64,000 nt of DNA, taken from the IMG/VR virus record IMGVR_UViG_3300049927_000163, positions 9,513 to 73,512 of that record; one strand, given 5' to 3'. A program made the translations under genes and the position numbers. A model generated the notes under the pieces. That model made no database searches. It was given only the letters and a program-made list of their open reading frames with translations, and was not told the DNA's origin. Source of the DNA: a virus. The first letter of the stretch is position 1, and each line of letters starts with the position of its first letter. This document shows positions 1-55,105 of the stretch, piece after piece.

Positions 1-669
1 ACCTGCTACAGGAAGTGCTATATTTGCAAATCTCTGGTAAGCGTTTGGACGAGGTGGAATTTGTCCTGCATTTTGAGATATAGTAGATGCATTATTTCCA
101 GCATTCGAAAGGTTTTGGTTAGCTCCTGATTGAGCATTGTATAAGTCACCAATAGTGTTATATTGCATTTGCTGTTGACGAGCGCGTTCTTCTTGAACTA
201 GAGGAGCAAATTGAGCATTCAGGCCAAGATGTAGATTTGCACCTGCGGCAGCTAAGGCTTGGTTCAAGGCTGAAGAGGTTTTGCTTCCACGGCCAAATTG
301 ATTCATGACATCAGGAAGTGTCTGCTGTTGGAAGTTAGCACGAGCATATTCAGCTACTGGATCAAAAACCTGTTTAGCTTGGTCATAGCCTTGCGTTCCT
401 TGATAGGCCTTACCACCTACACCAAATTCACTTCGGAGTTGCTGGGATAGAGGATCTGTACCAGCTGCAAAGTCTTGAGTTCTCTGAAGTGCTTCTTTAC
501 GAAATGGAGCACCTTTCAAGTATTCTTTGGCGGCTTGTTTTTTTACCTTAAGATCTGCTTCTCTAGATGTATCTTTGTCGCCTTTAAGCTTTTTTATTAA
601 TTTTCCTGCTGCATTATAACCAAGACCAAATGTTGCAACCTTTCCTACTTTTTTACCTGCTTTTCCCAT
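1..669 (-). CDS. Virion ejection/internal protein (runs off window)
   Basis: Own translation MGKAGKKVGKVATFGLG...FQQQTLPDVMNQFG...SSALNQAL. Shares SSALNQAL and position (after GNAT gene) with 37808..38578. Gln/Ala/Gly-rich. Confidence 0.7.
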   Translation of the reverse strand, partial: MGKAGKKVGKVATFGLGYNAAGKLIKKLKGDKDTSREADLKVKKQAAKEYLKGAPFRKEALQRTQDFAAGTDPLSQQLRSEFGVGGKAYQGTQGYDQAKQVFDPVAEYARANFQQQTLPDVMNQFGRGSKTSSALNQALAAAGANLHLGLNAQFAPLVQEERARQQQMQYNTIGDLYNAQSGANQNLSNAGNNASTISQNAGQIPPRPNAYQRFANIALPVAG

Positions 670-11664: not shown

Positions 11665-12336
11665 ATGGAATATCCAAAGATAAATAGCCTATATAAAAGA
11701 GAAGATGTCACACTAGATCCTGTAACTGGAAAGAATTTATTTAGCAAATCAAAGAAGCATAAGTTAGTCATTGGTGACTATGCCCTTGAGGAATTTGGTC
11801 TTATTAACTCGTGGCAGGTTTTTGAGAAAATCGATGGGACCAATATCCGCATTACTTTTAAAAAAGAAGGAATTCTTGAAGATGTTAGGTTTGATGGACG
11901 CACCAATAATGCACAAATACCTACCCATTTGATTAAATACCTACAAGACAAGTTCACTATTGAGAAGTTGTCAAAATATTTTGAGGAAGATGGCACATAT
12001 ATTCTATTTGGCGAGGGATTTGGCCCAAAAATACAAGATGGTGGCAATTATCGTTTTGATGTCTCATTCATCCTTTTTGATGTGTTTATTTCTCCCTGGT
12101 GGCTAAATTATGAAAGTCGTCTTCAAATAGCAGATTATCTAAGCATTGAACATGTACCTTTTCTTGGAGAAATGAATGAAAGTGAGATATTGCATTACAT
12201 CAGATCGAAGCCAAAAAGCACTATTTCAGTCAATAAAGATTATGTCATGGAAGGGGTAGTTTGTAGATCAGAACCTTTGCTTTGTCTGAGGAATGGGGAT
12301 CCATTGAAGTTTAAACTTAAATGTGTGGATTTATGA
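11665..12336 (+). CDS. ATP-dependent RNA ligase (Rnl2-like adenylation domain)
   Basis: Nucleotidyltransferase motifs: EKIDGTN (I), LFGEGFG (III), FILFDV (IIIa), MEGVV (IV), KFKLK (V). No OB domain. Confidence 0.8.
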   Translation: MEYPKINSLYKREDVTLDPVTGKNLFSKSKKHKLVIGDYALEEFGLINSWQVFEKIDGTNIRITFKKEGILEDVRFDGRTNNAQIPTHLIKYLQDKFTIEKLSKYFEEDGTYILFGEGFGPKIQDGGNYRFDVSFILFDVFISPWWLNYESRLQIADYLSIEHVPFLGEMNESEILHYIRSKPKSTISVNKDYVMEGVVCRSEPLLCLRNGDPLKFKLKCVDL

Positions 12337-12512
12337 AACGTATTTTTACAGTTCGAAGGTACCAAATTGGGTTTTTTGGATCTTTAATAGTACATGATGT
12401 TAAGCTTAAATTATCTAAGAGACTTTATAAAAAAGTAATTCGTAATGTTGGACGAGTAAAAATAAGATGTAATAAGAATTATTCTTACCCAAGATGTATT
12501 CTGGCCACATAG
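12333..12512 (+). CDS. Small basic protein upstream of tRNA
   Basis: MKRIFTVRRYQIGFFG...; near-identical copy at 55096..55275 on the minus strand. Confidence 0.5.
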   Translation: MKRIFTVRRYQIGFFGSLIVHDVKLKLSKRLYKKVIRNVGRVKIRCNKNYSYPRCILAT

Positions 12513-12575
12513 CTCATGCGGTAGAGCACTCGTCTGTTAAATGAGCGGTCGTTGGTTCGAATCCAACTGTGGCCT
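12503..12575 (+). tRNA. tRNA with GTT anticodon (Asn by anticodon), no encoded CCA
   Basis: Acceptor GGCCACA/TGTGGCC, D-stem GCTC/GAGC, anticodon arm CTCGT-CTGTTAA-ATGAG, T-arm GTTGG-TTCGAAT-CCAAC. Confidence 0.9.
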
Positions 12576-13832: not shown

Positions 13833-15947
13833 TTACACTCCTGTTTCTGAAGTCATAGGCTGTTGCTCTGCCATCTGCATCTCATGCTGGCCTCGATCAA
13901 TGTCATGGTTCATTCTGTGTTGGTCAAGTTCAGTTTTAGCCAAACTATTAAGCATATTTAGCTTTTCCATGAGTTGGGAATGATCAATACCTTGGAGCTC
14001 TTTTACAGCTTTTACAATATTCAAGAGTTCAGCGGTCTTCTCTTCTTCTGCGCGGGATATTCTCTCTGCATTTAATGCTTGGTCAAGGTGAATTTTGTTA
14101 AGCCTTTCAGCTGCAAGGGCTTGGTCACTTTGCGCCTTTGCCTCTATGCCATCTGTTGCAACACGGAGCTGCTCCATCTCAAGAGCTTCTTGCTTCTGTT
14201 GGAACTGTTGCTGTTGCTCGGCTTGAGCATCAAGGATTTCATTGAGCTCAACTTTTCCGTGGAGGTTTGAATTCTTGACAAGTAGACTATCTGGGATGTT
14301 GACACCAAGTTGTTTGAGGGCGAGAAGCTGCATAAATTGAGATTGCCTCTGTGTATCTGTCAAGATACCTTCCTCAACGACGATATCATAGTTATAGAAG
14401 TTCTGAGAGAAGAATTCAGGTGGACATTGTTTCTTTGTGATCTTCTGGATTTTTTCAGAGGACCAGTTCGCTTGAATCATTTTAAGGACTTTCTGGCCTA
14501 TGAGTTGCTGGGTCTCTGCTAAGCCATCAAAGAGACGTCGTAATGACACCAGACCGGCGTTAACACGCATTTTAGCTAGTATTGCTGCGGTCTCTAGATT
14601 TGGATTCTCTGGCATACCAAGCATTTCAGGGTTTATGCCTAGAATATTCGGAATATCTTTTTCGAAAGCATCCATAAGAGCAAAGTGGCCAGGAGGGATA
14701 TCGGCGGGAGCAAGTTTCTCAACATCTGTCATCTGTGCGGTGGGTTTCATAAATATTACTGGACCTTGTCCAGATTTGAATAGGGAAGCGGAGTTTTCTA
14801 CGGAACCTGATTTAGCTTTCCAGCCAGGGTAGGCTTGAGAGTCGAGAATATCCACCATCTTAGAACGTCTTTTATTGAGCTCTAGTTGGGGGTCACGGAT
14901 TAAACGTATGAGACTCTGCATTTTCCATTGGAATAGGTCATAGGAAGGCTCATAGATAGCAAATATTGGCGTTTGAGCGTAGTCATTGATGCCATAGGGG
15001 TCTACACCATAATAAAGTAGCTGATTTTCAACGATAATACCAAGGTTGACTTGTTGTACCGGCTTCTTGATTAGCTGCATGTTGGGCATCATAGCCTGGA
15101 TGTAGGACAATCTCTCACGAGTGCCTTTCCATTCAGAGGTTTCTCCTGTAGCCATATCGACGAGCACGTCTTTTGTCACCCAAGATTTGGTCCAGTATTC
15201 CGTGTATGACATTAATTTATTGAAAGCTCCCTGGCGAACGTATGGCATATAGGTGAATTTATTATCACGAGTTCCGTAACTTAATCTTTTAATTACATCT
15301 TCTTGCTCGGGAAGAAGTGAGATGACATCAGTTCTAGAGATATACTTGCGTCTAGCAAAGAAATTACAATCTGATAAGTCTTTCTTGTAAAAGAATGGGT
15401 CCCAAATGGTGTCGTTCCAGTGGTCCAGGTTGAAAGCTACTTCGCCATTTACTGGATCGTTACGGTAGTCCATATAGGGAGATATCCAGGATACTCCTGT
15501 CACCATCGCATCCTTGAAGCCAGTGGATAGTGTCTCATAGAAGTTTCCACGATTGTTGGCGTACTGGATGCAGTCTGTGGCAATATCAGCTATAGCATTC
15601 TGGTCATCTTGGACGGGGGATATGATTGTAGCGAGTCTATTTTGCCTTTGGATACCCTCGATAAGGTTTATCATCCTCATACACATATTGTACGTGAGGG
15701 CTAGGCGTTGTTGATCTGCTAGATATTTTACTTGATTCAGGTCCCACTGATTGCCTAGATAGAATGATTGATCACGGTAGGCTTCGGCATAGTATGGATT
15801 AATCATTTGATAGGCACGGTCATAGCGTTCCCCGAACATATTGACAATGTCGTAGCCTTCATCAAGACGGGGTTGTACTGTTTTTCGCTTGTAATCTGAG
15901 AGGAAGTCTTCGGCATTGCTAACTAGGGACGCTTCGGGGAGGCTCAT
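13833..15947 (-). CDS. Portal protein (P22-like)
   Basis: 704 aa; RD..FYLGNQW, C-terminal Gln-rich coiled coil. Homolog of 46393..48417. Confidence 0.85.
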   Translation of the reverse strand: MSLPEASLVSNAEDFLSDYKRKTVQPRLDEGYDIVNMFGERYDRAYQMINPYYAEAYRDQSFYLGNQWDLNQVKYLADQQRLALTYNMCMRMINLIEGIQRQNRLATIISPVQDDQNAIADIATDCIQYANNRGNFYETLSTGFKDAMVTGVSWISPYMDYRNDPVNGEVAFNLDHWNDTIWDPFFYKKDLSDCNFFARRKYISRTDVISLLPEQEDVIKRLSYGTRDNKFTYMPYVRQGAFNKLMSYTEYWTKSWVTKDVLVDMATGETSEWKGTRERLSYIQAMMPNMQLIKKPVQQVNLGIIVENQLLYYGVDPYGINDYAQTPIFAIYEPSYDLFQWKMQSLIRLIRDPQLELNKRRSKMVDILDSQAYPGWKAKSGSVENSASLFKSGQGPVIFMKPTAQMTDVEKLAPADIPPGHFALMDAFEKDIPNILGINPEMLGMPENPNLETAAILAKMRVNAGLVSLRRLFDGLAETQQLIGQKVLKMIQANWSSEKIQKITKKQCPPEFFSQNFYNYDIVVEEGILTDTQRQSQFMQLLALKQLGVNIPDSLLVKNSNLHGKVELNEILDAQAEQQQQFQQKQEALEMEQLRVATDGIEAKAQSDQALAAERLNKIHLDQALNAERISRAEEEKTAELLNIVKAVKELQGIDHSQLMEKLNMLNSLAKTELDQHRMNHDIDRGQHEMQMAEQQPMTSETGV

Positions 15948-18130: not shown

Positions 18131-19630
18131 CTACAATCCGTATGGGTTATGACGCTGTACCATTCTCTCTACCCAATCATCTGTAACACCAGAATCTCCA
18201 AGGAGATGTATGCCACAAGTAAGGGTACGTAATGCATCTGCGCAATGACTTGCATCATTATGCAGAGGTTTAGAGCCCCAACAACCTAATTTAGCATTCC
18301 ATGAGCGCTTATAGTTATCAAGATGTGCAACACCTTTACCACACTTAGATTCATCAAACCAAAATCTAGGGAAAAGATAACGTGTAGCATCTATGCCTTC
18401 ATCAACTGGAATATCTGAAACCAGAGTGAAGGTAAAGCCATTCTTTCGAGCAGTCTCAATACGCGTTAAGCCCGAGCCATACTCATGCGCGGCGGCATCA
18501 TGAGGAACAAGGTGAGTGCCATAGATATAACGTTTTTCTTTTAAAAGCTTGAGGTAGTAGACTAAGGATTCATTGTTTCCTTCGATGTATTCCAAAAAAT
18601 GAATTTCTTTTCCTTCTATCTGGAACAGCCAAATTGCAGTACTGTCCCCGTAGCCTAAATCAAAACAGGTATGTACCGGAGCGTCTTCGGAGTAGTAAAT
18701 TTCACTGATTCTACCCTGCTGGCGAGCATAACTTAGCTGCTGTGCATAGTAGGCACCAGTGATGGCAGTTTCAAAGGATTCAGCTGGCGTAGAAGGGTAT
18801 TCACGCTTCATATCCTCTTGCTGCGTGGCCTGCTTTTTGACATACCATTGCTTTTGAGGAAGAGATAGCTTGATATCTTGACGCTCTAAAGATTCAAAGT
18901 AATCATTCTGTTCTTTTGTAATTACAACATGTTCATTCAGGAAGTAATCCTTACATTTATACCAAGGAAAGAAGTGAAAAAGATAATCCAGCTTAGTAAG
19001 CTTGGTCTTTTTGTCCTTGAGAGCTTGGGCCTCTTGACACATGTCATAAAAGTAACCGTCACGCCCTTCGGCTGTAGACTCTATAAACACAAACTGGCCA
19101 GCAGCAAGCGTGTTAAGTGAGCCAGTCACTATCTCCCTAGCTCTAGTAGTATCAACGGCTGAAATCTTGCCAAATTCGGAAATGTGGAGATATTGGAGCG
19201 TCGAGCCTCTCATAGAGGTGCCAACACGAAGCGAACTGCCATTGTTAAAAACAAGCTCGCGGGCACTATCAACCGTTGCTGAACGATAAGCCTTGAGCTG
19301 AAGGTCTAAAGAATCATAGGCAAACTTGATACGCTTGAACATGTAGGCCGCATCATCCATAGTATGGGCGATGATACCGGCAGATAAGTTGTCATTGAAT
19401 AGGCAGCGGTCTAGGAAAAGTATACATACATATGTAGATATACCAAGCTGTCTAGCCTTGAGGATGATGTTGCAATGCCAGGTGTTGTTATAAAGTTCTT
19501 CTTGGGCCCAATTACACTTGAACTTAACCTTCTCACCCTCTTTGCCAATAATCCAATATAGATTATTCAGCCTCCACCAAGGGTCATCTAGATTCTTCCT
19601 GGCTTGCTCAATCTCTTGCTTAGTCGGCAT
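18131..19630 (-). CDS. terL: Terminase large subunit
   Basis: Walker A ILKARQLGIST, LHISEFG, FIESTAEG coupling motif, nuclease DLGYGD and SHCADALR. Confidence 0.9.
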   Translation of the reverse strand: MPTKQEIEQARKNLDDPWWRLNNLYWIIGKEGEKVKFKCNWAQEELYNNTWHCNIILKARQLGISTYVCILFLDRCLFNDNLSAGIIAHTMDDAAYMFKRIKFAYDSLDLQLKAYRSATVDSARELVFNNGSSLRVGTSMRGSTLQYLHISEFGKISAVDTTRAREIVTGSLNTLAAGQFVFIESTAEGRDGYFYDMCQEAQALKDKKTKLTKLDYLFHFFPWYKCKDYFLNEHVVITKEQNDYFESLERQDIKLSLPQKQWYVKKQATQQEDMKREYPSTPAESFETAITGAYYAQQLSYARQQGRISEIYYSEDAPVHTCFDLGYGDSTAIWLFQIEGKEIHFLEYIEGNNESLVYYLKLLKEKRYIYGTHLVPHDAAAHEYGSGLTRIETARKNGFTFTLVSDIPVDEGIDATRYLFPRFWFDESKCGKGVAHLDNYKRSWNAKLGCWGSKPLHNDASHCADALRTLTCGIHLLGDSGVTDDWVERMVQRHNPYGL

Positions 19631-21667: not shown

Positions 21668-22342
21668 TTAACTATATCTGTACTTTGCTTTGTATTCTTT
21701 CGCAATTTTAGTTAAAAAAGCTGCGACATTTTCAGGTTTTCCGTATTTTCTCCAGTAATCTTTTGTATCTTTGATTGCGGACTGTAATTCAGCTTCGGAA
21801 AATTGATTTGCAATAATTTGCTTATCTTTGTCAGAAAGTATCGGTATTTGAAGGCAATGTGGTATAGATTTATTGACGTAAGTCCAGGAACGCTGCCGAT
21901 TTTCAAAAACTTTGAAATTAGAATCATCCATAGTGAGTAACGTTCCTTTACTTGTTCTAGATATTCTAGATAGTGTCGGAAACTGTGTCGGACTATCTCT
22001 AGAAATATCTACTTTTCTAAAAATATTCCTATCCTTTGTGTCTAATTTTAAAAGATTATCTGATATAAAGTAAAGTAATGATTGATATGCTTTTTTAATT
22101 GTGCTCATCCAACCATAAGATAAGAATTTCTTGACCGCCTCAATAACTGTATCGCGACAACATCCAACCATACGAGCAATTGTGCTTTGACTGGGCCTGG
22201 TTACATAGCAATGCTTATTAAACCAGCATAGGAGTTGCCAGATTTGCTTTTGATGATAACTAAGCATTTCGAAAGATATCAGGAAGTTTTGTTGCTCTTC
22301 TGTAGGTTTGAATTCTGTTTGTGTTTGAGCTTTTTGTGACAT
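21668..22342 (-). CDS. Winged-HTH replication initiator-like protein
   Basis: PSQSTIARMVGCCRDTVIEAVKKF..GW HTH and C-terminal ENVAAFLTK. Start placed at MSQKAQ. Confidence 0.6.
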   Translation of the reverse strand: MSQKAQTQTEFKPTEEQQNFLISFEMLSYHQKQIWQLLCWFNKHCYVTRPSQSTIARMVGCCRDTVIEAVKKFLSYGWMSTIKKAYQSLLYFISDNLLKLDTKDRNIFRKVDISRDSPTQFPTLSRISRTSKGTLLTMDDSNFKVFENRQRSWTYVNKSIPHCLQIPILSDKDKQIIANQFSEAELQSAIKDTKDYWRKYGKPENVAAFLTKIAKEYKAKYRYS

Positions 22343-22559
22343 TTTATTCTTCCTCCGAAGATTGTGTTGGTTTAAAACACTCGGAGAAAGTACCATTAGA
22401 ATTATCCTTACAAGATATTCTTTAGGTTTCCTTTCTTCTCTTCCGAGCGAACGAGGGTTGTGTTTCCTAAATGACAATAGGGCCGTGTAAACAGCGGCCC
22501 TTTGTTATTTACGTCCTTTTTATATACGCCTCACAGCCAATTTCCGCCTACTTATTTCC

Positions 22560-22618: not shown

Positions 22619-23311
22619 TTAAGCTACGGATGCAGGTCTATCTTTCCACTCTTTCATACTCGAGCTAAATTGTGCTACTTTTTCATCTGTTGACAGCGCA
22701 CTTGCTATGAGTTCCGCTCTTGTCTTTTTCGGATACTTTTCCACTAAGTATTCTAGAAACTTTGTCACATCATCCTCGCCTACTAGATTTCCAGTGGCAC
22801 AGACGGCCTTTTGCAGCCTCACTGTTGAATGATCTATAGCTATAGGCTGTGTAGACCCTGATAGGCTCATATTCATTGGTTCTACTGGCCTTTGCATGTG
22901 TCTTGATTCCTCTTTCTGGGTAGCCTTCCTTTCGGATTCACCATCATCATCAAAAGTTGATAGGCCTATCAGGGAGCTAAGAGAATATCTCCTAAAATAG
23001 GTCGTAGATCCTCCTATCGACTGTGAGTCACCTTTTCCTGCAGGCAAAAGCACCCTTCCTTTTATCCATTGCCCCGATTTGTGCAGCAATCTCGTGACTA
23101 GATAGTTCTTTTCGTTTTCTACCTCGTATGTCATGACAACGCTTAACCCATTATCCTTCAAAGGCTTTTTGCATGCTTGCATAACTGTATGTAAATCAGC
23201 GTATTTGCTCTTAAAATATGGATTTGCGCTATTTTCAACAGCACCTTCAATTTCTCCCTGCGCTATGGATAACGCTGTAGCTAATTGGTCTAGTTGTTCT
23301 GATTGCATCAT
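22619..23311 (-). CDS. erf: ERF-family single-strand annealing protein
   Basis: NPYFKSKYADL, L.H.SGQWI, QSIGGSTTYFRRYSL, DDDG motifs. Confidence 0.9.
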   Translation of the reverse strand: MMQSEQLDQLATALSIAQGEIEGAVENSANPYFKSKYADLHTVMQACKKPLKDNGLSVVMTYEVENEKNYLVTRLLHKSGQWIKGRVLLPAGKGDSQSIGGSTTYFRRYSLSSLIGLSTFDDDGESERKATQKEESRHMQRPVEPMNMSLSGSTQPIAIDHSTVRLQKAVCATGNLVGEDDVTKFLEYLVEKYPKKTRAELIASALSTDEKVAQFSSSMKEWKDRPASVA

Positions 23312-23668: not shown

Positions 23669-24298
23669 CTAGTCAATATCAAAGTTATTTGCTTTATCTT
23701 CCCAATATTTATTTGCCTCGTCAATGCATTCCTGGAGCACTTTTTGGCTAAAAGTAAATTCATAAACTTTCGGTGCAACTGCTTCATAAGTCATAATATT
23801 CATACCAGTAAAACCGTCCATGATAGGCTGTCCATCATTATTTACTAGATTTACTTTCTTATGACGCAGGTTAATCCAGCGCATCTTGGTTCCAATTTCT
23901 ATTTTGTTAGCTGATACGAGATACCAGTAAAAGTGTGCCTGCATATTCCAAATCTTCTCGTTCGCTTTCGCGGAGGTCTTATAATCTATGAGTATTGGTC
24001 CATCTGCAGAATCTATGATCGCGTCCATCTGGCCAGTTATCATGAGATTGTCATCAAAGAGCCTGGCTTCCATGACGAGATATTTTGGATCTGCTTTTTC
24101 ATACCATTGAAGGAATGAGTTAAAGTAGGCACGCTCTCTATCACATTTGTGCTCATAGGGCTGTTTTAGGATGTATTTCTGAATTGACTCATGGACATTT
24201 GTTCCTATTTGAGCCTTGGCTGCTAGAACATCGTGGTCTATAGATCCAAAGTTCTGAAGTCTTGCTAAAATATCACTGACTCGTACGTAGTTTTTCAT
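23669..24298 (-). CDS. PD-(D/E)XK exonuclease
   Basis: RVSDIL, GTNVHE, GQMD, LIDYKTS, Q..FY motifs. Adjacent to erf. Confidence 0.8.
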   Translation of the reverse strand: MKNYVRVSDILARLQNFGSIDHDVLAAKAQIGTNVHESIQKYILKQPYEHKCDRERAYFNSFLQWYEKADPKYLVMEARLFDDNLMITGQMDAIIDSADGPILIDYKTSAKANEKIWNMQAHFYWYLVSANKIEIGTKMRWINLRHKKVNLVNNDGQPIMDGFTGMNIMTYEAVAPKVYEFTFSQKVLQECIDEANKYWEDKANNFDID

Positions 24299-24370
24299 GT
24301 AACCTCCTGTTATTTCTCCTTGCATATTATTACAAGACTATGATTTAATACAAGCACAAAGGAGGTAATC

Positions 24371-24550
24371 GTGAAATTAGAAGCCTATTTAGAGAAGCAT
24401 AAAATGAGTCCTTTTGACTTTGCAGCACTCATACAGTGTAGTGTGGACACTGTTTTTAGATGGAAGAGAGGCGTTACGCCTTCAAAAGTATATCAGAGAC
24501 AGATTGAAGAGAAAACTAAAGGTCAAATAAAACAAAGGGATTGGGTGTGA
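24371..24550 (+). CDS. Cro-like HTH regulator (59 aa)
   Basis: Own translation MKLEAYLEKHKMSPFDFAALIQCSVDTVFRWKRGVTPSKVYQRQIEEKTKGQIKQRDWV. GGAGG RBS. Divergent from the recombination operon. Confidence 0.75.
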   Translation: MKLEAYLEKHKMSPFDFAALIQCSVDTVFRWKRGVTPSKVYQRQIEEKTKGQIKQRDWV

Positions 24551-25002
24551 AAAAGAGTGATATTGAGGTACTGGGTGAAAATGATTACTTAACCGTTCAG
24601 GAAGCGGCTGTTTTCATGGGTGTTTGTACACAGTGTGTTTACAAGGCTATTTACAGGAAGAAGCTTGAGTTCAAAAAGATCAAGGTGCTTCTAGACAATG
24701 GCTTTATGAAATGGAGGACGTATACAACTAAATGCTGGATAGCAAATTATAAAGCAATCATGCATGACAAGGACACTATGCGATGGAATGGGAGGCCAAT
24801 GTTTATACCCAAAGAAGGCAAGCTTAGTACTCATCAGGCTTATGAATATCTTGGGATGACTAAAAATATGCTGGCGCATTACACGAGAACTGGTCAGCTA
24901 AAATATACGAGGAAAGGGTACTACTATGTCTATGATGTAGAAGACCTGGATGCTTTACGTGAATCTATTGAAGAAAAAGCTAAGCTACTAAAGACTGGGT
25001 AA
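24547..25002 (+). CDS. euo: EUO-like tandem HTH_17 DNA-binding protein
   Basis: Two excisionase-type HTHs (LTVQEAA..MGV..Q.VYKAI.RKKL; LSTHQA...LG......YTRTGQLKYTRKG...V) joined by the linker W.G..MF...EG, matching chlamydial EUO as recalled. GTGA-coupled to the cro-like gene. Confidence 0.7.
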   Translation: MKKSDIEVLGENDYLTVQEAAVFMGVCTQCVYKAIYRKKLEFKKIKVLLDNGFMKWRTYTTKCWIANYKAIMHDKDTMRWNGRPMFIPKEGKLSTHQAYEYLGMTKNMLAHYTRTGQLKYTRKGYYYVYDVEDLDALRESIEEKAKLLKTG

Positions 25003-25281: not shown

Positions 25282-25698
25282 ATGAGTGTCTTTACAAAAG
25301 AGACACTCATGTACCTGTTTGAGATACACCAGAAGCCTATTCCTCAAAAGCAAACGCAATGGGGAAGGGGTAAGGGTTACGACCCTAGCAAAAAAGATAA
25401 AGAGACGTTAATTTGGCAGATACGAGCCTATGCTCCAATTAAGCCTATAGAAGGGCCAGTATTGGTCGATATTATGTTTTACATGCCAATACCCAAGACC
25501 TCGAAGATACAAGCTAGAAACATGGCTAACGGGGCAATTTTGCCAATTAAGAGACCTGATGTTGACAATCTAGCATATCTGATAACGAATGCCATGAAGG
25601 GCATCTTCTATGAGGATGACTCACAAATTGTAGATCTATTGCTACACAAGCGATACGGGGAACAGACAAAAACAGTTGTAAAGGTAATTGAATTGTGA
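25282..25698 (+). CDS. rusA: RusA Holliday-junction resolvase
   Basis: RPDVDNL.....NAM.G..YEDDSQIV motif. Confidence 0.9.
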   Translation: MSVFTKETLMYLFEIHQKPIPQKQTQWGRGKGYDPSKKDKETLIWQIRAYAPIKPIEGPVLVDIMFYMPIPKTSKIQARNMANGAILPIKRPDVDNLAYLITNAMKGIFYEDDSQIVDLLLHKRYGEQTKTVVKVIEL

Positions 25699-26674: not shown

Positions 26675-26868
26675 ACCATAAAGAACGCGAAGAGCTTGGT
26701 ATCAAGCTTAAACAGGCTAGAATTTCAAAAAGACTTACTCCTGCCCAAGTCTCTAGTAGAATTGGGCATCATTTTAGCTTGATAGAGAGATTAGAGCGTG
26801 GAGAAGTTACTTTGATCAATGAAGCAATGCTCCAAGACCTATTCAAGAATCTTGATATTGAACTTTAA
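26662..26868 (+). CDS. XRE-family HTH protein
   Basis: LKQARISKRLTPAQVSSRIG....LIERLERG. Confidence 0.75.
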   Translation: MSILNHKEREELGIKLKQARISKRLTPAQVSSRIGHHFSLIERLERGEVTLINEAMLQDLFKNLDIEL

Positions 26869-27269
26869 GATAATGCATCCAGGAGGTCTTTTTGGATCTC
26901 CTTTTCACCCGTACTAAATGCCACAATTTCTTTTTCTTGAAGTGGTGGCAATGGTGGGAAGATTTCATCTGCTCTTAGGAGTCTAGGGATGTAGCGTCTG
27001 GATTGCTGTACAACCATCATAGAACGGGCGAGGCTCAACGAACAATACCCAGTGGCTACTATGGCACAGGTCAAGGCTGAAAGCTCCAAGGATGGGCAGT
27101 ATATCTTGCCATCAAATACTAGGAATGAGAGTTCATAGACCTTACGGGCAAGTTGTCCACTAGCTCCAGCAAAGGCTAGAGAACCTAGGAGTTTCGCTGA
27201 TTTCAAGGCTATTGGTGGTAGGCTTGTAGGTATATAGCTCTTAAGGCTTTCGAAGCATTTCATGGGCAC
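26865..27269 (-). CDS. Two-hydrophobic-segment membrane protein, last gene of late operon (allele A)
   Basis: Homolog of 63584..63916: near-identical N-terminus, shared GYCS and KEIVAF.TGE. Confidence 0.65.
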   Translation of the reverse strand: MPMKCFESLKSYIPTSLPPIALKSAKLLGSLAFAGASGQLARKVYELSFLVFDGKIYCPSLELSALTCAIVATGYCSLSLARSMMVVQQSRRYIPRLLRADEIFPPLPPLQEKEIVAFSTGEKEIQKDLLDALS

Positions 27270-27353
27270 CTATAGGGTTAAAATTTCATACCACACATTA
27301 ATAATAACAGTATTGTTATTGGCAGCATTGCCGGAAATTTCTGTTGCAAAAGG
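27235..27353 (+). repeat. Exact direct repeat, copy 1 (copy 2 at 63882-64000)
   Basis: 119 bp identical by inspection up to the window end. Confidence 0.9.
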
Positions 27354-27911
27354 TTCGTAGGCAACAATTTTCAGATTTTCCACTGCGGCAGTTGCATTAT
27401 TTGAGAGAACAAAACTAGTTGCTTGTTGCGCTTCCAATCGGCTTTGAGAAGCTACTATGCTTGTATTTGATAAAATAGTACCAATTGCTTGTCCAGCAGC
27501 GCTATTGTATCTAAGTTCAATCCATTGAGATGCGCCTGCAACAAAGACGTTACTTCCTCCATATTTCATTTCTGCGCTTACAGTAACTGGAAGAACAATT
27601 TTCCCCGAACCTGGAGCGGCAATTATTTGTATTGGCGTACCATGAAGAGCTTTTACTTGAGCAGAAGTTAAAGTAACTGTTGCTAAAGATAATATACTCA
27701 CTCCTCCCGGTCCCGTTTGCCATGTAGGTAACGCAGAAGGGCCATTACTAGTTAGAGCCTGAGTACTAGAGCCTAATCCCGATACATTTTGTAAAGGCGC
27801 GGTGCTAGTAGTTCCTGCACATAGTATAGAGTAGGCTGTGAAGGAAGAATTGTTTGTACCACCTGTTGTAGTGTCAATCGGATTGCTGAAGTTATCACAA
27901 TTGTTTGTCAT
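27270..27911 (-). CDS. Tail fibre/tip paralog 3
   Basis: SNP....GG....FTAY and LTSAQVK.LH.TPI..IAAPG.GK...YGG.NVF motifs shared with the two neighbouring ORFs. Confidence 0.7.
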   Translation of the reverse strand: MTNNCDNFSNPIDTTTGGTNNSSFTAYSILCAGTTSTAPLQNVSGLGSSTQALTSNGPSALPTWQTGPGGVSILSLATVTLTSAQVKALHGTPIQIIAAPGSGKIVLPVTVSAEMKYGGSNVFVAGASQWIELRYNSAAGQAIGTILSNTSIVASQSRLEAQQATSFVLSNNATAAVENLKIVAYEPFATEISGNAANNNTVIINVWYEILTL

Positions 27912-28528
27912 TATGTGCTCACTACTGAATATAAAACATAAGCTGAAAATAAGTTGTTATTGGCAACATTTCCTGTAATAGCTGTTCCTTTATTTCCTAT
28001 AACTAAAGGTAAGTTATCAAATTGTGATAAATTTCCAACGGTTGACCCTGATGGCTCGCAATATATTTGGCTAGAAGAAGAATTCATGGCGGATTGTGTC
28101 ATCAATTGAACCACTGATAATCCTGCATTATTATTCCATTCTAAAACTACACCTAAGCTGCCACCTGAAAAGACATTAGTTCCTCCATATGTCATTTTTG
28201 CAGTTACAGCAAGAACAAATAAAACAGTTCCTGCACCCTGCGCCGGAACAATTGTGATAGGAGTGGTGGTTAATGCCTTTATCTGAGCATTGGTTAAGTT
28301 CAGTGTAGCTAGAAAAGTATTTGAGCTAATCGTCTGATAACTTGGCAAAACCCCCGCACCATTTGATATAAGTACTTGACCAGAAGTTCCGGTACCAACC
28401 TCTTGAATATTACCAGTATTTGTAGTTCCAGCGGCAAGTGTAGTATAGGCTGTAAATGAACCTACCCCGAGTCCGCCCTGTGGAACTGTTATAGGATTTG
28501 AGCTATTGATTGCATTATTTGTCGCCAT
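27911..28528 (-). CDS. Tail fibre/tip paralog 2
   Basis: MATNNA.N.SNP.TVPQGG.G; same two-domain layout as its neighbours. Confidence 0.7.
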   Translation of the reverse strand: MATNNAINSSNPITVPQGGLGVGSFTAYTTLAAGTTNTGNIQEVGTGTSGQVLISNGAGVLPSYQTISSNTFLATLNLTNAQIKALTTTPITIVPAQGAGTVLFVLAVTAKMTYGGTNVFSGGSLGVVLEWNNNAGLSVVQLMTQSAMNSSSSQIYCEPSGSTVGNLSQFDNLPLVIGNKGTAITGNVANNNLFSAYVLYSVVST

Positions 28529-28533
28529 TTTAC

Positions 28534-29160
28534 CTAGAGTGTTACTATGTAATAGGATGCTTGTATCGTAAAAGTGTTATTGTTTGCGGCGTTACCAGAT
28601 ATTTCTGTTGCACTAGTGTTTCGAACGTTTACATTTATATTGTCAAACAAGGTTGCTGCACCTAAAGGATTTGAATCCGGACCAAGATAAGCATATTTAT
28701 TCGCATTGCTCGTAATCATAGCATTAACGATTAACCCACCATAAGTAATAGTCGAACCACGGAATATATCAATGGTTTGCGAAGCGCCTGCCACAAAGAC
28801 ATTAGTCCCACCATAATTAAATTTTGCAGCAACATTCAAAATAGATATCACCTTTCCAGCACCTGGAGCGGCAATCAATTCTATAGGTGTAGCATGTAAT
28901 AATTTAACCTGAGCAGAAGTTAAAGTTAATTGAGCTGTCTGTATAGTCAATACAGAAGCTGTTTGCCAAGTTGGTAATGAAGAAGTACCAGTACTGACAA
29001 GAACTTGCCCGCTTGTGCCTAAACCTGACACGTTTTGCAATGCACTTGTGCTAGTAGTTCCGCCAGTTAAAACAGAATATGCCGTAAAGCTTGCATCACC
29101 AGTACCACCTTGTGGAACTGTGACAGGATTACTCATGTTTGTTGCATTATTTGTCGCCAT
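28534..29160 (-). CDS. Tail fibre/tip paralog 1
   Basis: MATNNATNMSNPVTVPQGGTG; C-terminus ATEISGNAANNNT shared with paralog 3. Confidence 0.7.
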   Translation of the reverse strand: MATNNATNMSNPVTVPQGGTGDASFTAYSVLTGGTTSTSALQNVSGLGTSGQVLVSTGTSSLPTWQTASVLTIQTAQLTLTSAQVKLLHATPIELIAAPGAGKVISILNVAAKFNYGGTNVFVAGASQTIDIFRGSTITYGGLIVNAMITSNANKYAYLGPDSNPLGAATLFDNINVNVRNTSATEISGNAANNNTFTIQASYYIVTL

Positions 29161-46154: not shown

Positions 46155-46403
46155 CTAGAAATCGTATTCAAATGCTTCTTTAGGAGTGCCTCTATAATCA
46201 TAAGGAAGTGCATTTACGCGCTTTCCATCATAATCAGGGCAAGGATCTACATAATAAGGCTTGGAAGCATGCCCCATAATGCCATCACCCATAGAACCGG
46301 CCTTCTCAACGTTAAGATAACGTTCATTCATAGCCTTAGATGGGTAACGCGCATCAAGTTTTTCCTGCTCCGGAACCTTATTCATTTTTGGTTTACCTGG
46401 CAT
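46155..46403 (-). CDS. Small head-module protein
   Basis: 82 aa ORF overlapping the portal stop. Confidence 0.5.
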   Translation of the reverse strand: MPGKPKMNKVPEQEKLDARYPSKAMNERYLNVEKAGSMGDGIMGHASKPYYVDPCPDYDGKRVNALPYDYRGTPKEAFEYDF

Positions 46404-48417
46404 TGTTCACCTGTTTTGGTTGTGTTTGTTTATCGGCTTGTGCCGAGATTGCAACGTCTTCCGCTTTCATTTGTTGTTCTTGAGCACGGTTGACGCCTTC
46501 CAATGCCATAAAGACATCGAGAAGCTTTAAAACTCTATCATCGTCCATTGCGTCTAACTGTTTGATTGCCTGCATTCGTTTCAAATCGGCGTCAGATCGG
46601 TTATCAAGTGACTTCGATACTCTTTCGTCTTCTAGGCCGAGATTTGCAATAGCTCTTGTAAATCGTTCTTTTGCTGAAGCAATATTCGAAATAGATTGAG
46701 ACTGGAATAGCTCGGATTGAACGCGGACCTTCTCCATCTCGACTTGAGTAACTTGCTGTTGCGCTTGCTGCTGCTGTTTGTTGAATTCTTCCATTGCCTG
46801 CATGTATTCAGTCTTACCTTGGAGAGGTGCAACTTTTGCAAGTAATCCAGGTGGAACTGGCTCGCCGATCTCTTTAAGAGCAAGAAGCTGGTTAAAGAAC
46901 ATCTGTTGTTGACTATTAGTGAGCACGCCTTCTTGAACGGCTATATCGTAGCGTAGGGCATCTAATTTAAAGATCTTTTCGTCAGGCTCTTCATTAATGA
47001 TGCGCTTGATCTTTTGTTTAGACCAGGATTGCTGCATTTTCAGAATTTTCTTAGAGATACATTCTTGAGCAAAACGCATGTTATCAAAGATATCTTGCAG
47101 ACCTACAAGCGCAGCTCCTTGACGAAGCATCACTTTAAGTCCAGAATCTTGCTCGGAATCCGCTTGGCCTAATAGTTCTTCCGAAATATTCGCCACTTTC
47201 ATAATATGTCCCTCAAACATGTTCTTCAATTCGAAGAAACTGGGGGGTATTTGAGCAGGCTGTATCTTTACTATTGCATCTGGTGCCAAACCTTTTTTCT
47301 TAAATATCGCTCTACCTTGAGATGTCTGATAGAGAGATCTTGGGTTGATAACGGCATCTTCTTCAGCAATCCAGCCAGAGTTAATTTGGCTCTGAACGAG
47401 GTCAAGCATCTGCGAGCTCATCTGATTAGTGATGCGCTGCGGATCTATCATAGTCCTAACGAGAGATTGAACCTTTAAAACGTAATCGTAGCTTTCAGGT
47501 TCGAAAACTCCGAAGAAAGGCACGAATGGGTATTCATTTAGACCATATGGATTTTTCTCAGACTTGATATATTCACTATTTACGATGATGTGCTGGTAGA
47601 CAAAGGGTTCTATTCGTTCGATAACCTCCATATTTGGATCAGCAAATAGGAAGTAGTCGGATTCTTCCCCTAGATATTCCATTGTCTCGCCAGTTAAAGC
47701 ATTATATAGGAATTTCTTGGGTTCCCATCCTTGTTCCCAGAATTCATCATATGCCATCATCTTGCCACCGTTAGGCAACTGCTGATAAGGTAACCATGTG
47801 AATTTATCGTCTCTTTCCCATCCAACGTGGTAGAGCATATCTAAGTCTTTTTCCATGCCTGGAAGCAGTGATTTAACCATTGGAAGTGGTAGATACTTAC
47901 GTCTTAAGATATTAGAACAATCCGACATGTCTTTTTTGGTAAAATATGGATCACAGATGAAGCCATTATACGGCTCTCGTGAACATTTTATTTGACCATC
48001 AAGTGGATCTGTTCTATAATCTTTCCATAAACTGAATAGGTTCCAACCTGTGATAAGGGCGCCCTTAAAACAGTCGGAAATCTGTTCGTACATATCTCCG
48101 TGCTGGAATGTATATAATAATAGTTTTGTCAGTTGGTCTGCTGCCCGTTGATCACTGGCTTCAATTGGTACGCACACTGACGAATGACGATGTTTTTTCT
48201 GATATCCGGTTACCATGTTGATATTTGGTCGGATGAAATTATTTACATAGGTACTTCTACCATCTTGGAATATTGCTCTCTTTTCTTCTTCGTTCCACTG
48301 ATCCCCGAGATACATTCTCAGATCACGATCGGCATAAGGAAAAAGAGGATTCCAAGCGTAATAATTCTTATAGTAGGCTTGATAGTAATTGTTGACGATC
48401 TCTTGCCCGATCAGCAT
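46393..48417 (-). CDS. Portal protein (P22-like)
   Basis: RD..MYLGDQW, DPYFTKKD.SDC...RRKY, RDDKFT..PY; homolog of 13833..15947. Confidence 0.85.
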   Translation of the reverse strand: MLIGQEIVNNYYQAYYKNYYAWNPLFPYADRDLRMYLGDQWNEEEKRAIFQDGRSTYVNNFIRPNINMVTGYQKKHRHSSVCVPIEASDQRAADQLTKLLLYTFQHGDMYEQISDCFKGALITGWNLFSLWKDYRTDPLDGQIKCSREPYNGFICDPYFTKKDMSDCSNILRRKYLPLPMVKSLLPGMEKDLDMLYHVGWERDDKFTWLPYQQLPNGGKMMAYDEFWEQGWEPKKFLYNALTGETMEYLGEESDYFLFADPNMEVIERIEPFVYQHIIVNSEYIKSEKNPYGLNEYPFVPFFGVFEPESYDYVLKVQSLVRTMIDPQRITNQMSSQMLDLVQSQINSGWIAEEDAVINPRSLYQTSQGRAIFKKKGLAPDAIVKIQPAQIPPSFFELKNMFEGHIMKVANISEELLGQADSEQDSGLKVMLRQGAALVGLQDIFDNMRFAQECISKKILKMQQSWSKQKIKRIINEEPDEKIFKLDALRYDIAVQEGVLTNSQQQMFFNQLLALKEIGEPVPPGLLAKVAPLQGKTEYMQAMEEFNKQQQQAQQQVTQVEMEKVRVQSELFQSQSISNIASAKERFTRAIANLGLEDERVSKSLDNRSDADLKRMQAIKQLDAMDDDRVLKLLDVFMALEGVNRAQEQQMKAEDVAISAQADKQTQPKQVNNAR

Positions 48418-48652: not shown

Positions 48653-49942
48653 TTAGATGTATTGCCTATTGTTACCTTTATATCCGCCATGAAATCCCTT
48701 ACCATATGCTCGCTCCATTGCATTCGCATCCGCTTCCGTCATTCCACCCTGCATTCGATCGAAGAAGTGGGTATATAGTGCGTATCTCTGTGCATCGCAA
48801 GAATGGTCGTTCTGTTTGATGGGCTGGTCAATTCCACGCTTGCTTGCCCTTTCATCCCAAAGATATGTGCTGTATTCCTTAATGGAATTCACACATGTTT
48901 TACATATCTTATATGTTCCGTTTGAAAGTAACTGTCCTTGAAAACGAATCCCTGGAATCACATCATTCTTTGCATCTAGTACATCCACTACCCCGACTTT
49001 TCTCATCTCAACTTTGAAAGATAAAGCAGATGGGTCTATATAAATTGCCTTTACTGGATAACCAGATATAAAATCAATTAAATCTTTGGCGTAATCACTA
49101 TCGCTTTTTTGTCTATTTTTTGCTTTTGAATCGTAATAGTATTCTTTCTCTAGCCAGATGTTTGGATATAGTCCAGAATTATACCCAATGAGAGAGAAAA
49201 CACAAGGGTTGCTAGTACCATAGTCAATACCGCAAATATAATAAGTAGCCGGTCCAGGAGGCTGCAGGATCGTGTGCAAGTCTTCCGTAAAAAAGTCATA
49301 AATAGCTCCTTCTGCTAATACCCATTTACCCTCGATATAGCGCTGATACCAGAGGCCAGAATATTCTTTTTTTAGGTTATTTTTGTAGTCTTCCCCAAGA
49401 GAGGGGTTATCTTCGATAGAGAACTTGAAGACCGCGATATCTCTTTCAGCCGCCTTGTCGATAAATTCGACCTTGAGCCAATGAAAAGGGGAATCTGGAT
49501 TGGTCGAACCAAATAGTTTTGCTCCAGGTAACGATAACCTAGAAAAGAGCATTTTCGTAAAGTTCTCAGGTATGATCGTAACTTCGTCGAGAAGTGCGCC
49601 CACATATTCTGACCCACGGATCTTAGCTTCCGCTCTTTCGTCGTTTGCTCCAACAACATCTATTGTCCTTCCCCATAGTTTGATCTCACCTTTACCAGAG
49701 AGATACTGTAAATCATCGCCAATCAGGTCATAGAGAGGTCGAACGATATTACGCTTAATAGTAGGCTCTGTTCTTCCACATACGATTAGAGGACCTTTAG
49801 GGCCATTCTGAATGAAATCTATCCAACGCCAGAAACAGGCATAGGATTTACCAGATCTAACAGGACCTTCCCAAATGTTAAGTCTCGCTGTGCTCTCCAC
49901 TAGACTTCGCTTCTGTATCGGACTTAATATCTGCTTTAACAT
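48653..49942 (-). CDS. terL: Terminase large subunit (PBSX-like)
   Basis: EGPVRSGKS Walker A, IRG.....ALLDEV, STNPDSP.HWLK, GIDYG..NP, DHSCDAQRY. Confidence 0.92.
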   Translation of the reverse strand: MLKQILSPIQKRSLVESTARLNIWEGPVRSGKSYACFWRWIDFIQNGPKGPLIVCGRTEPTIKRNIVRPLYDLIGDDLQYLSGKGEIKLWGRTIDVVGANDERAEAKIRGSEYVGALLDEVTIIPENFTKMLFSRLSLPGAKLFGSTNPDSPFHWLKVEFIDKAAERDIAVFKFSIEDNPSLGEDYKNNLKKEYSGLWYQRYIEGKWVLAEGAIYDFFTEDLHTILQPPGPATYYICGIDYGTSNPCVFSLIGYNSGLYPNIWLEKEYYYDSKAKNRQKSDSDYAKDLIDFISGYPVKAIYIDPSALSFKVEMRKVGVVDVLDAKNDVIPGIRFQGQLLSNGTYKICKTCVNSIKEYSTYLWDERASKRGIDQPIKQNDHSCDAQRYALYTHFFDRMQGGMTEADANAMERAYGKGFHGGYKGNNRQYI

Positions 49943-55032: not shown

Positions 55033-55105
55033 AGGCCACAGTTGGATTCGAACCAACGACCGCTCATTTAACAGACGAGTGCTCTACCGCATGAGCTATG
55101 TGACC
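55033..55105 (-). tRNA. tRNA with GTT anticodon (copy of 12503-12575)
   Basis: Reverse complement matches the unit A copy except acceptor position 3 (GGTCACA, giving a U:G pair). Confidence 0.88.

Follow-up and report, generated by a model that had tools for sequence, protein, structure and literature searches.

Among the switches of the chlamydial developmental cycle, EUO (CT446 in Chlamydia trachomatis; Euo in Waddlia chondrophila) is the one known best, which is why relatives of it on phages are of interest. PMC4989314 describes Waddlia Euo as a protein with tandem TorI-like winged helix-turn-helix domains (wHTHs) at residues 6–62 and 78–137 whose DNA binding needs Y31, R47, and Y100, and describes EUO as binding repeated minimal boxes and acting on >100 promoters. 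EUO represses late functions and autoregulates (PMC9816063; PMC11423577), and a high EUO level causes reversible developmental arrest (PMC11423577). EUO has also been published as the one conserved transcription factor that Chlamydiae alone possess. It is regarded as confined to this phylum and as having no relatives elsewhere (PMC1403754; PMC4989314), or as a “putative chlamydial gene invention” (PMC9816063). Here, we describe a 151-amino-acid (aa) protein encoded in a 64,000-nt window of viral DNA, which comprises bases 9513–73512 of the 73,512-bp IMG/VR virus record IMGVR_UViG_3300049927_000163; feature coordinates below are window positions. The protein shows genuine though remote homology to EUO, linker included, and its gene belongs to the conserved early core of a whole tailed-phage group rather than being a one-off capture. 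A full-text literature search, within the parts of papers that it covers, brought up no account of an EUO relative in a phage and none of tailed phages that infect Chlamydiae. To our knowledge, only Microviridae have been described as phages of the phylum Chlamydiae.

Homology to chlamydial EUO

The preliminary description of this locus had likened the phage protein to EUO segment by segment, including the linker between its two domains, and this likeness proves to be real and far beyond chance. BLASTP aligns the protein with a chlamydial EUO ortholog, P0081, over 132 colinear residues at 25% identity (E 7e-8). Of 401 chlamydial genomes sampled, 388 have an EUO locus that is matched (E ≤ 1e-12) by a profile built from 42 sequences of the phage protein’s own clade, with zero EUO rows. 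The best E values are 1e-28 to 1e-35 over profile positions 3–127 of 130, and the listed best matches in the 401 genomes are all EUO loci. Alignment of this profile with 12 EUO orthologs by hhalign gives a probability of 99.87% (E 1.5e-31) over 124 columns, in which the linker is aligned throughout and only nine extra residues in the first wing of the phage protein interrupt the match. The homology of EUO to a phage protein is thus confirmed and EUO is therefore not a chlamydia-only protein.

A word-based search yielded only two close relatives, with 85% and 51% identity to the phage protein. An exhaustive HMMER search of 1.84 billion representatives, with the protein and these two relatives as query, extended the family to 208 proteins at E ≤ 1e-3, 28 of them at E ≤ 1e-10, nearly all 125–160 aa long and aligned over their full length. 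Excisionase-like best matches that fail across the linker, which the preliminary description had named as the outcome that would speak against EUO, are therefore not what the search returned. EUO orthologs among the matches are P0081 (E 8.6e-7), a product of a Chlamydiia metagenome-assembled genome (MAG), and P0114. Relatives of P0081 occur at 359 places in the genome collection; among the matches listed, 80 of 80 lie in chlamydial genomes or MAGs, and some genomes with listed relatives are labelled Verrucomicrobia or ‘bacterium’. ESM Atlas offered generic HTH_17 clusters from viruses, Bacillota, and Bacteroidota, which come without alignments and serve as leads only. With two TorI-like wHTHs, a gapless conserved linker, and significant full-length homology, the phage protein belongs to the EUO-type tandem wHTH family.

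The P0081 ortholog group contains 3,346 clusters at E ≤ 1e-20, with 70–84% mutual identity across chlamydial families. Its members share an invariant Tyr, Arg, and Tyr (Y25, R41, and Y94 in the alignment), which correspond to Waddlia Y31, R47, and Y100 because the spacing of 16 and 69 residues is identical. We take this group to be EUO, partly from general background and partly from the features given in PMC4989314; no database output names it EUO. NCBIfam likewise gave no EUO model that matches either the phage protein or the EUO ortholog, and no ortholog carries the source label ‘EUO’. Genuine chlamydial orthologs show the same motifs as the approximate EUO strings of the preliminary description.

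A whole-family profile matches 392 of 400 chlamydial genomes, mostly with one strong match, which is the EUO locus. About 33 genomes had two matches; in the five of these that were examined, all of one lineage, the second full-length match is an EUO duplicate. In four of the five genomes the paralogs stand in tandem 1.1–1.9 kb apart (G093:C1:165336-167419, G331:C82:11325-13946, G227:C28:20364-22186, and G089:C18:66474-68917), while the fifth has its copies on separate contigs. The doubled EUO of this chlamydial lineage is a tandem duplication of a master regulator gene.

Domains and fold of the phage protein

As the preliminary description had read from the letters, the protein carries two HTH_17 domains, which open reading frame (ORF) calls, Pfam, and AlphaFold2 (AF2) bear out. 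Pfam places HTH_17 on two stretches (E 5.1e-12, 46 bits vs a 27-bit cutoff) and MerR_1 at residues 94–138. NCBIfam offered TIGR01764 ‘excise’ alone, at 28.2 bits (E 1.8e-6), below its 28.8-bit cutoff. The AF2 model (predicted local distance difference test score, pLDDT, 92.5) has two beta-alpha-alpha-beta-beta winged-helix units, a structured linker, and a C-terminal helix. A model of a Simkania-type EUO segment (pLDDT 92.7) has helices and strands in identical order and spacing, including the small hairpin of the linker. Two linker glycines, G82 and G91, are almost invariant in 137 family members (motif ...G..(F/Y)....G..S...).

For both models the closest solved structure is TraN of the Enterococcus plasmid pIP501 (PDB 4pm3, 4p0y, 4p0z; E 2.9e-3 and probability 0.99 for the phage protein, E 7.9e-4 for EUO). 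TraN is a repressor of its transfer operon. Like the phage protein, it is a single chain with two excisionase/MerR-like helix-turn-helix units, and it binds double-stranded DNA; however, identity is 10–14%, the linker motif is absent, no relation exists at the sequence level, and TM-scores reach only 0.29–0.40 because its two units differ in orientation. Single-domain structural matches of both models are RacA, BldC, Pukovnik Xis, and MerR-type N-domains, and RdfS is listed for the phage model only. A sequence search of solved structures with the three-sequence profile returned nothing significant (the top match, LEDGF chains at E 0.09, is a chance one). Each half of the protein has the fold of single-domain HTH_17/TIGR01764 proteins such as TorI, Tn916 Xis, Pukovnik Xis, RdfS, and AlpA, with root-mean-square deviations of 1.3 Å over 49 columns for Pukovnik Xis and 1.6 Å over 51 columns for RdfS. 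In contrast to single-domain excisionases, the phage protein fuses two such units with a conserved linker and has no recombinase partner in its genome.

Predicted structures of phage proteins of similar length were also matched in BFVD over 135–149 columns (E 1e-5 to 1e-4), for example a ‘HTH DNA binding protein’ of Rhodococcus phage ChewyVIII and A0A6J5NTK4 of an uncultured Caudovirales. They differ from the phage protein in that identity is 14–16%, TM-scores are 0.32–0.41, and none is among the sequence-search matches, so that an EUO-type linker or common ancestry would be conjectural. Tandem excisionase-like regulators therefore recur in phages, and what is new here is the occurrence of the EUO-type family on phages, not the architecture.

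Distance from EUO

Two trees were built, with FastTree from 151 rows and with IQ-TREE (quick mode) from 162 rows; both are unrooted because an alignable outgroup is lacking, and fragments <118 aa, nine multi-stretch proteins >190 aa, and P0095 were left out. EUO orthologs form one tight, short-branched clade in the IQ-TREE tree, with Shimodaira–Hasegawa-like approximate likelihood ratio test (SH-aLRT) support of 96, and the phage protein falls outside it. The FastTree tree places it at a great distance from EUO, in a separate clade with long branches that comprises 44 rows (SH-like support 98). The phage branch evolves fast and the EUO branch, as its ortholog identities indicate, slowly. Because of its low identity, its place outside the EUO clade, and its diverged recognition helices, the phage protein is not an EUO ortholog. 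The preliminary term ‘phage-encoded EUO homolog’ therefore holds at the family level, for a protein that is homologous end-to-end and lies on a tailed-phage genome with a probable chlamydial host, but not in the sense of orthology.

The phage protein and EUO share tandem TorI/Xis-type winged helices, a conserved structured linker, and a similar size, and both have the conserved helix-2 Tyr and, in domain 1, the wing Arg. Phage residues Y32, R57, and A110 align with Waddlia Y31, R47, and Y100, so that two of the three are conserved, with a one-residue shift possible. Differences are the insertion in the first wing, Ala at the third binding-residue position, a fast-evolving sequence, phage carriage, and a Cro-like partner gene. 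The settings also differ: EUO is typically a single-copy chromosomal gene of Chlamydiae, whereas the EUO-like gene belongs to a phage record and has a nuclease gene on one side and RusA on the other.

Phage carriers of the family

IMG/VR scans with sub-alignments found 14 viral contigs with family members (L123, L164–L173, and L180–L182). Thirteen were analysed; L173 (4.2 kb, partial match) was left out, and the copies in L166 and L167 are identical. Most carrier contigs are 36–40 kb long, and further family representatives with the source name ‘excisionase family DNA binding protein’ lie on contigs of 36–41 kb. Portal proteins are 57–62% identical to that of the window phage where compared (57–58% in L164, L165, and L167), and large terminase subunits (TerL) are 62–63% identical in L166–L168 and 52% in L182. 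The nuclease neighbour recurs in L123 and L164–L169 at 39–46% aa identity, and RusA adjoins the EUO-like gene in related phages at 48–57% identity. The recurrent gene order is nuclease on the minus strand followed by Cro-like, EUO-like, and RusA genes on the plus strand. In 10 of the 13 loci, the ORF immediately before the EUO-like gene is Cro-like; L171, L180, and L181 lack it. Such a conserved core early gene fits a role in the phage’s own regulation, and it also allows a history in which EUO came from phages.

Members on viral contigs occupy at least four separate parts of the family tree, including the part next to EUO. The copy of contig L180 is the one closest to the theme of EUO mimicry: over 125 residues it is 50% identical to EUO, its second wHTH is a close match to that of EUO, and it appears on these grounds to be the best candidate for true mimicry. 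The L180 contig is closely related to the second phage unit of the window record, with whose TerL its own shares 78% identity. Its EUO-like protein (L180:1593-2165 of IMGVR_UViG_3300020047_015033; ~186 aa) has a Pro-rich C-terminal tail and is encoded after a RusA-like gene.

With tblastn, 50,697 GenBank phages gave two partial matches to the window protein (E 0.09–0.6) and none to the EUO ortholog, and 72,556 plasmids gave one marginal single-domain match and no family member. A genome-contig scan with the close alignment detected no relative, and a metagenome scan detected one 2.3-kb contig only.

The early operon

The EUO-like ORF is 151 aa long from the GTG at 24547, which is the form called in the IMG/VR collection (P0001), or 153 aa from an alternative TTG at 24541. 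Its GTG (24547–24549) overlaps the stop codon of the small gene before it in a GTGA, as the preliminary description had stated. Coordinates of the features are collected in Table 1.

Table 1. Features of the early region (window positions) and parts of the EUO-like protein (residues).
Feature	Position	Strand	Basis and remarks
HTH_36 protein gene	21668..22477	-	Leftward recombination/replication operon
ERF recombinase gene	22619..23311	-	Leftward recombination/replication operon
PD-(D/E)XK (Cas4-like) nuclease gene, divergent	23669..24325	-	Pfam; gene 1 of leftward recombination/replication operon
Promoter-like element, rightward early operon	24320..24349	+	Predicted by sequence reading
Cro-like small helix-turn-helix gene, 59 aa	24371..24550	+	GTG start, TGA stop 24548-24550; gene 1 of rightward operon
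EUO-family tandem winged-helix gene, 151 aa	24547..25002	+	Pfam HTH_17 x2, AF2, BLASTP, hhalign
RusA Holliday-junction resolvase gene	25282..25698	+	Pfam E 1.9e-22; conserved downstream neighbour, same operon as EUO-like gene
wHTH 1	residues ~14-61		9-residue insertion in wing
Structured linker	residues 62-93
wHTH 2	residues 94-130
C-terminal helix	residues 131-150

A position at the head of an early operon, which had been proposed from the single sequence, is supported by comparison. The divergent nuclease gene is only 45 bp from the start of the Cro-like/EUO-like pair, and the promoter-like element, which overlaps the nuclease start codon, reads TTGCAT (−35, 24320–24325), an 18-nt spacer, and TTTAAT (−10, 24344–24349). 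Conserved CAAGCACAAA follows 3' of the −10, and then an AGGAGG ribosome site. At the matching site between the nuclease and Cro-like genes, L165, L166, L168, L169, and L123 have a ~32-bp palindrome (TTGACTATAA, 12 nt, TTATAATCAA; L165:9709-9790, L166:9708-9790, L168:9730-9810, L169:7100-7190), of which the window has a weaker version. The palindrome reads as two overlapping, face-to-face sigma-70-type promoters and probably serves these phages as the operator of their early switch. To the right, the EUO-like gene is accompanied by a gene for an HTH_3 protein as well as by RusA (Pfam).

The 59-aa protein was also predicted to be Cro-like, for which there is moderate support. Alone, it has a weak HTH_26 match (E 0.007), and all single-protein Pfam scores are below curated cutoffs. 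When 10 orthologs from related phages are combined into a profile, it matches PDB chains of ‘antirepressor protein Cro’ (8co2 and 8c7k; E 4e-4, positions 1–60), and Pfam finds HTH_26 in seven and YdaS_toxin in five of the 10. These comparisons moderately support a Cro-type small helix-turn-helix protein at a divergent early promoter. The EUO-like gene is probably co-transcribed with it behind the promoter palindrome, and the two appear to be translationally coupled.

Two phages in one record

The record comes from a soil source and is two related phages joined head to tail. This is indicated by its doubled portal (13833..15947 and 46393..48417), TerL (18131..19630 and 48653..49942), and tRNA-Asn genes and by its collinear halves of ~36.7 kb each, in which paired ORFs have 23–93% aa identity. 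The EUO-like gene is in the first unit only. Of the sampled words, 98% occur in run X1, which may be the sample from which the record came and hence is not independent; an 8,009-nt X1 contig covers 22001–27264 with zero differences and ends at the junction. Runs X2 and X3 have small shares, and no habitat claim is based on them. The junction lies near 26865–27270, where the X1 contig ends (27264), depth shifts between 38 and 53, in that order, and position 27180 has a loose end. It is possible that the assembly path is chimeric and that no such tandem molecule exists.

Each unit has a tRNA-Asn(GTT), at 12503–12575 (+) and 55033–55105 (−), within a ~1-kb module of small ORFs that are 89–100% identical between the units. 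Because the place and orientation of the module differ between the units, being opposite in orientation, a mobile cassette is suggested. An RNA-ligase-family gene (11665..12336) adjoins the first tRNA-Asn copy. The tRNA was tried as a host clue and rejected, with 75–82% identity to chlamydial tRNAs vs 76–88% to unrelated phages among the matches listed. Three or four paralogous genes of ~205–240 aa stand in runs (window 27270–29160, minus strand, and L123:6493-9253, minus strand) with a common N-terminus (MATNNAIN...) and variable C-termini; they are probably tail-fibre/receptor-binding cassettes.

Probable host

Host evidence was sought in Chlamydiota genomes, and membership of the EUO family itself counts as a link between the phage group and Chlamydiae. 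Of 400 chlamydial genomes, 42 contain matches to TerL of unit A (E ≤ 1e-15); these include 23 near-full-length places with 55–61% identity in 19 genomes. On G238:C1, G048:C1, and G235:C1, these TerL relatives lie on megabase contigs that also hold the EUO locus. The best GenBank phage TerL, of Pseudomonas phage PS-1, reaches 46.6% identity, and the chlamydial margin is therefore moderate. The portal of unit B has relatives in seven of 400 chlamydial genomes, full-length and with up to 35% identity (E 1e-122), vs 23% for the best known phages. Contig G089:C1 (125 kb) encodes threonyl-tRNA synthetase, adenylosuccinate lyase, and an 844-aa protein with 37–42% homologs in four of five named chlamydial genomes; by a transposase it has a phage remnant whose TerL is 50% identical to that of L165 and whose portal fragment is 52% identical to that of the window.

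Larger prophage-like regions were also found. Contig G285:C1 (137 kb) has a collinear region of ~35 kb with 23–53% identity to unit B. Its chlamydial identity is not settled by its flanks, in which an 881-aa protein has 27–34% matches in four of five named chlamydial genomes, a 657-aa transporter has matches in none of the five, and a 669-aa protein has none in 39 other genomes. Three chlamydial MAG bins contain whole phage-like contigs of 31–41 kb. Chlamydial genomes with TerL or portal relatives have no tandem family member besides EUO and have single-domain HTH_17 genes only. On the combined sequence evidence, a chlamydial host for the phage is considered likely with good confidence, which we hold at this level because the search was limited to Chlamydiota genomes.

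Some of these chlamydial loci have features of their own. On G238:C1 (1374313-1376257) and G048:C1 (727053-728997), an intact island of TerL and its small partner TerS stands with no other recognisable phage genes; such islands, in the 19 genomes with TerL, are either remnants or a domesticated packaging module. G389:C7 has a single-domain HTH_17 gene 0.7 kb from a TerS+TerL pair. TerL of G285:C1 (68289-73309) is in two pieces, an N-part at 72560–73309 and a C-part at 68289–69089 with ~3.4 kb of small ORFs between them, and represents either an interrupted or a split gene.

Function of the EUO-like protein

With moderate confidence, the phage protein is read as an early sequence-specific DNA-binding regulator of the phage’s own genes. 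The observations behind this reading are homology, fold, conserved position, phage carriage, and the absence of an integrase. In the modelled protein, a conserved linker connects two winged helices of the excisionase type (TorI/Xis-like, HTH_17), which is the architecture of EUO. It would be expressed early, together with the Cro-like protein, from the first rightward transcript, would bind several short sites in promoter regions as EUO does, and would repress or time transcription. Its targets may be the phage’s late/structural operon or the divergent early promoters. That two of the three EUO binding residues (Y32 and R57) are identical in the phage protein also speaks for this role.

Several points weigh against regulation of this kind. 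HTH_17 proteins also serve as excisionases, activators, and antiterminators, and the data here favour neither repression nor activation by the phage protein. The equivalent of Waddlia Y100 is Ala110 in a gapless alignment, with a Tyr only two residues on (112). The recognition helices have just ~4 of 10 and 3 of 11 residues in common with those of EUO; because of this divergence, the DNA specificity of EUO is not transferable to the phage protein. A repeat search around the EUO-like gene gave no operator-like array, repeat, or binding site. A consensus promoter scanner passed over the window copy of the promoter-like element and made no call where the divergent genes meet, but it also found fewer promoter-like sites than in shuffled sequence and is thus uninformative.

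The first alternative, which we consider unlikely, is a positive regulator or antiterminator that turns on the long leftward structural operons. Q-type antitermination offers one mechanism for such a protein and activation in the manner of AlpA another. An early gene whose product would be made just ahead of late-gene need suits this role, and the HTH_17 family includes AlpA-type proteins; one relative, P0154, is source-named ‘predicted DNA-binding transcriptional regulator AlpA’. However, proteins of the AlpA type are single-domain, EUO, to which the phage protein is closer than to any other characterised protein, is a repressor, and the promoter and terminator scan identified no terminator or loading-site structure.

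A second alternative is that the protein acts on the host as a mimic or antagonist of EUO, by binding host EUO boxes or by forming mixed oligomers with host EUO, and so keeps the chlamydial cell replicating. The family and tandem fold of EUO, a probable chlamydial host, and the closeness of the L180 copy to EUO, its second wHTH above all, all favour it, and the reversible cycle arrest by high EUO described in PMC11423577 indicates that such a lever exists. For the window copy this is decidedly unlikely because it is only 25% identical to EUO and its recognition helices have diverged. Pairing of a core early gene with a Cro-like gene in most loci is, moreover, the pattern of a phage’s own regulator and not of an accessory takeover gene. 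Hijacking of the host switch is more plausible for an L180-type copy, to judge from its sequence, than for the diverged window copy.

It is highly improbable that the protein has an architectural function at an origin or partition site, in phage replication or episomal maintenance. Its neighbours are recombination/replication genes (ERF, nuclease, and RusA), TraN and RacA among its structural matches are site binders of plasmid or chromosome machinery, and the EUO-like gene of L123 is followed by one whose product shares 31% identity with a 248-aa window protein without a Pfam family. Yet no origin- or centromere-type repeat array lies nearby, and pairing with the Cro-like gene behind the promoter palindrome indicates transcription control. 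The least probable role of all is that of an excisionase or recombination directionality factor, despite the TIGR01764 match just under its cutoff, source names of relatives, and single-domain fold matches to RdfS and Pukovnik Xis, because the whole 73.5-kb record has no tyrosine or serine recombinase (PF00589 or PF00239; controls positive in 14 of 14 and 12 of 14 genomes), the tandem architecture and head-of-early-operon position are kept across the phage group, and the fold is also that of EUO, a transcription factor.

Origin of EUO and implications

The trees show EUO as one slow branch of a larger and far more diverse family, whose other members, wherever they could be assigned to a contig, lie on related tailed-phage genomes, mostly of 36–40 kb. 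Since phage members span the diversity of the family and EUO is a single slow branch, the comparison allows EUO to be a domesticated phage regulator, with the reservation that the trees are unrooted. A tentative proposal, which we regard as possible but doubtful, is that EUO is a domesticated early regulator of an undescribed group of tailed phages that infect Chlamydiae and that phage copies, above all of the L180 type, may still read or compete for EUO sites and so wire infection to the switch from reticulate to elementary bodies.

The origin of EUO is now testable, with domestication of a phage regulator and capture by a phage as the two alternatives. The family also provides scores of natural tandem winged-helix variants for work on DNA specificity. 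Finally, the analysis links a tailed-phage group to environmental Chlamydiae, organisms that are difficult to manipulate and for which these phages could serve as genetic tools.

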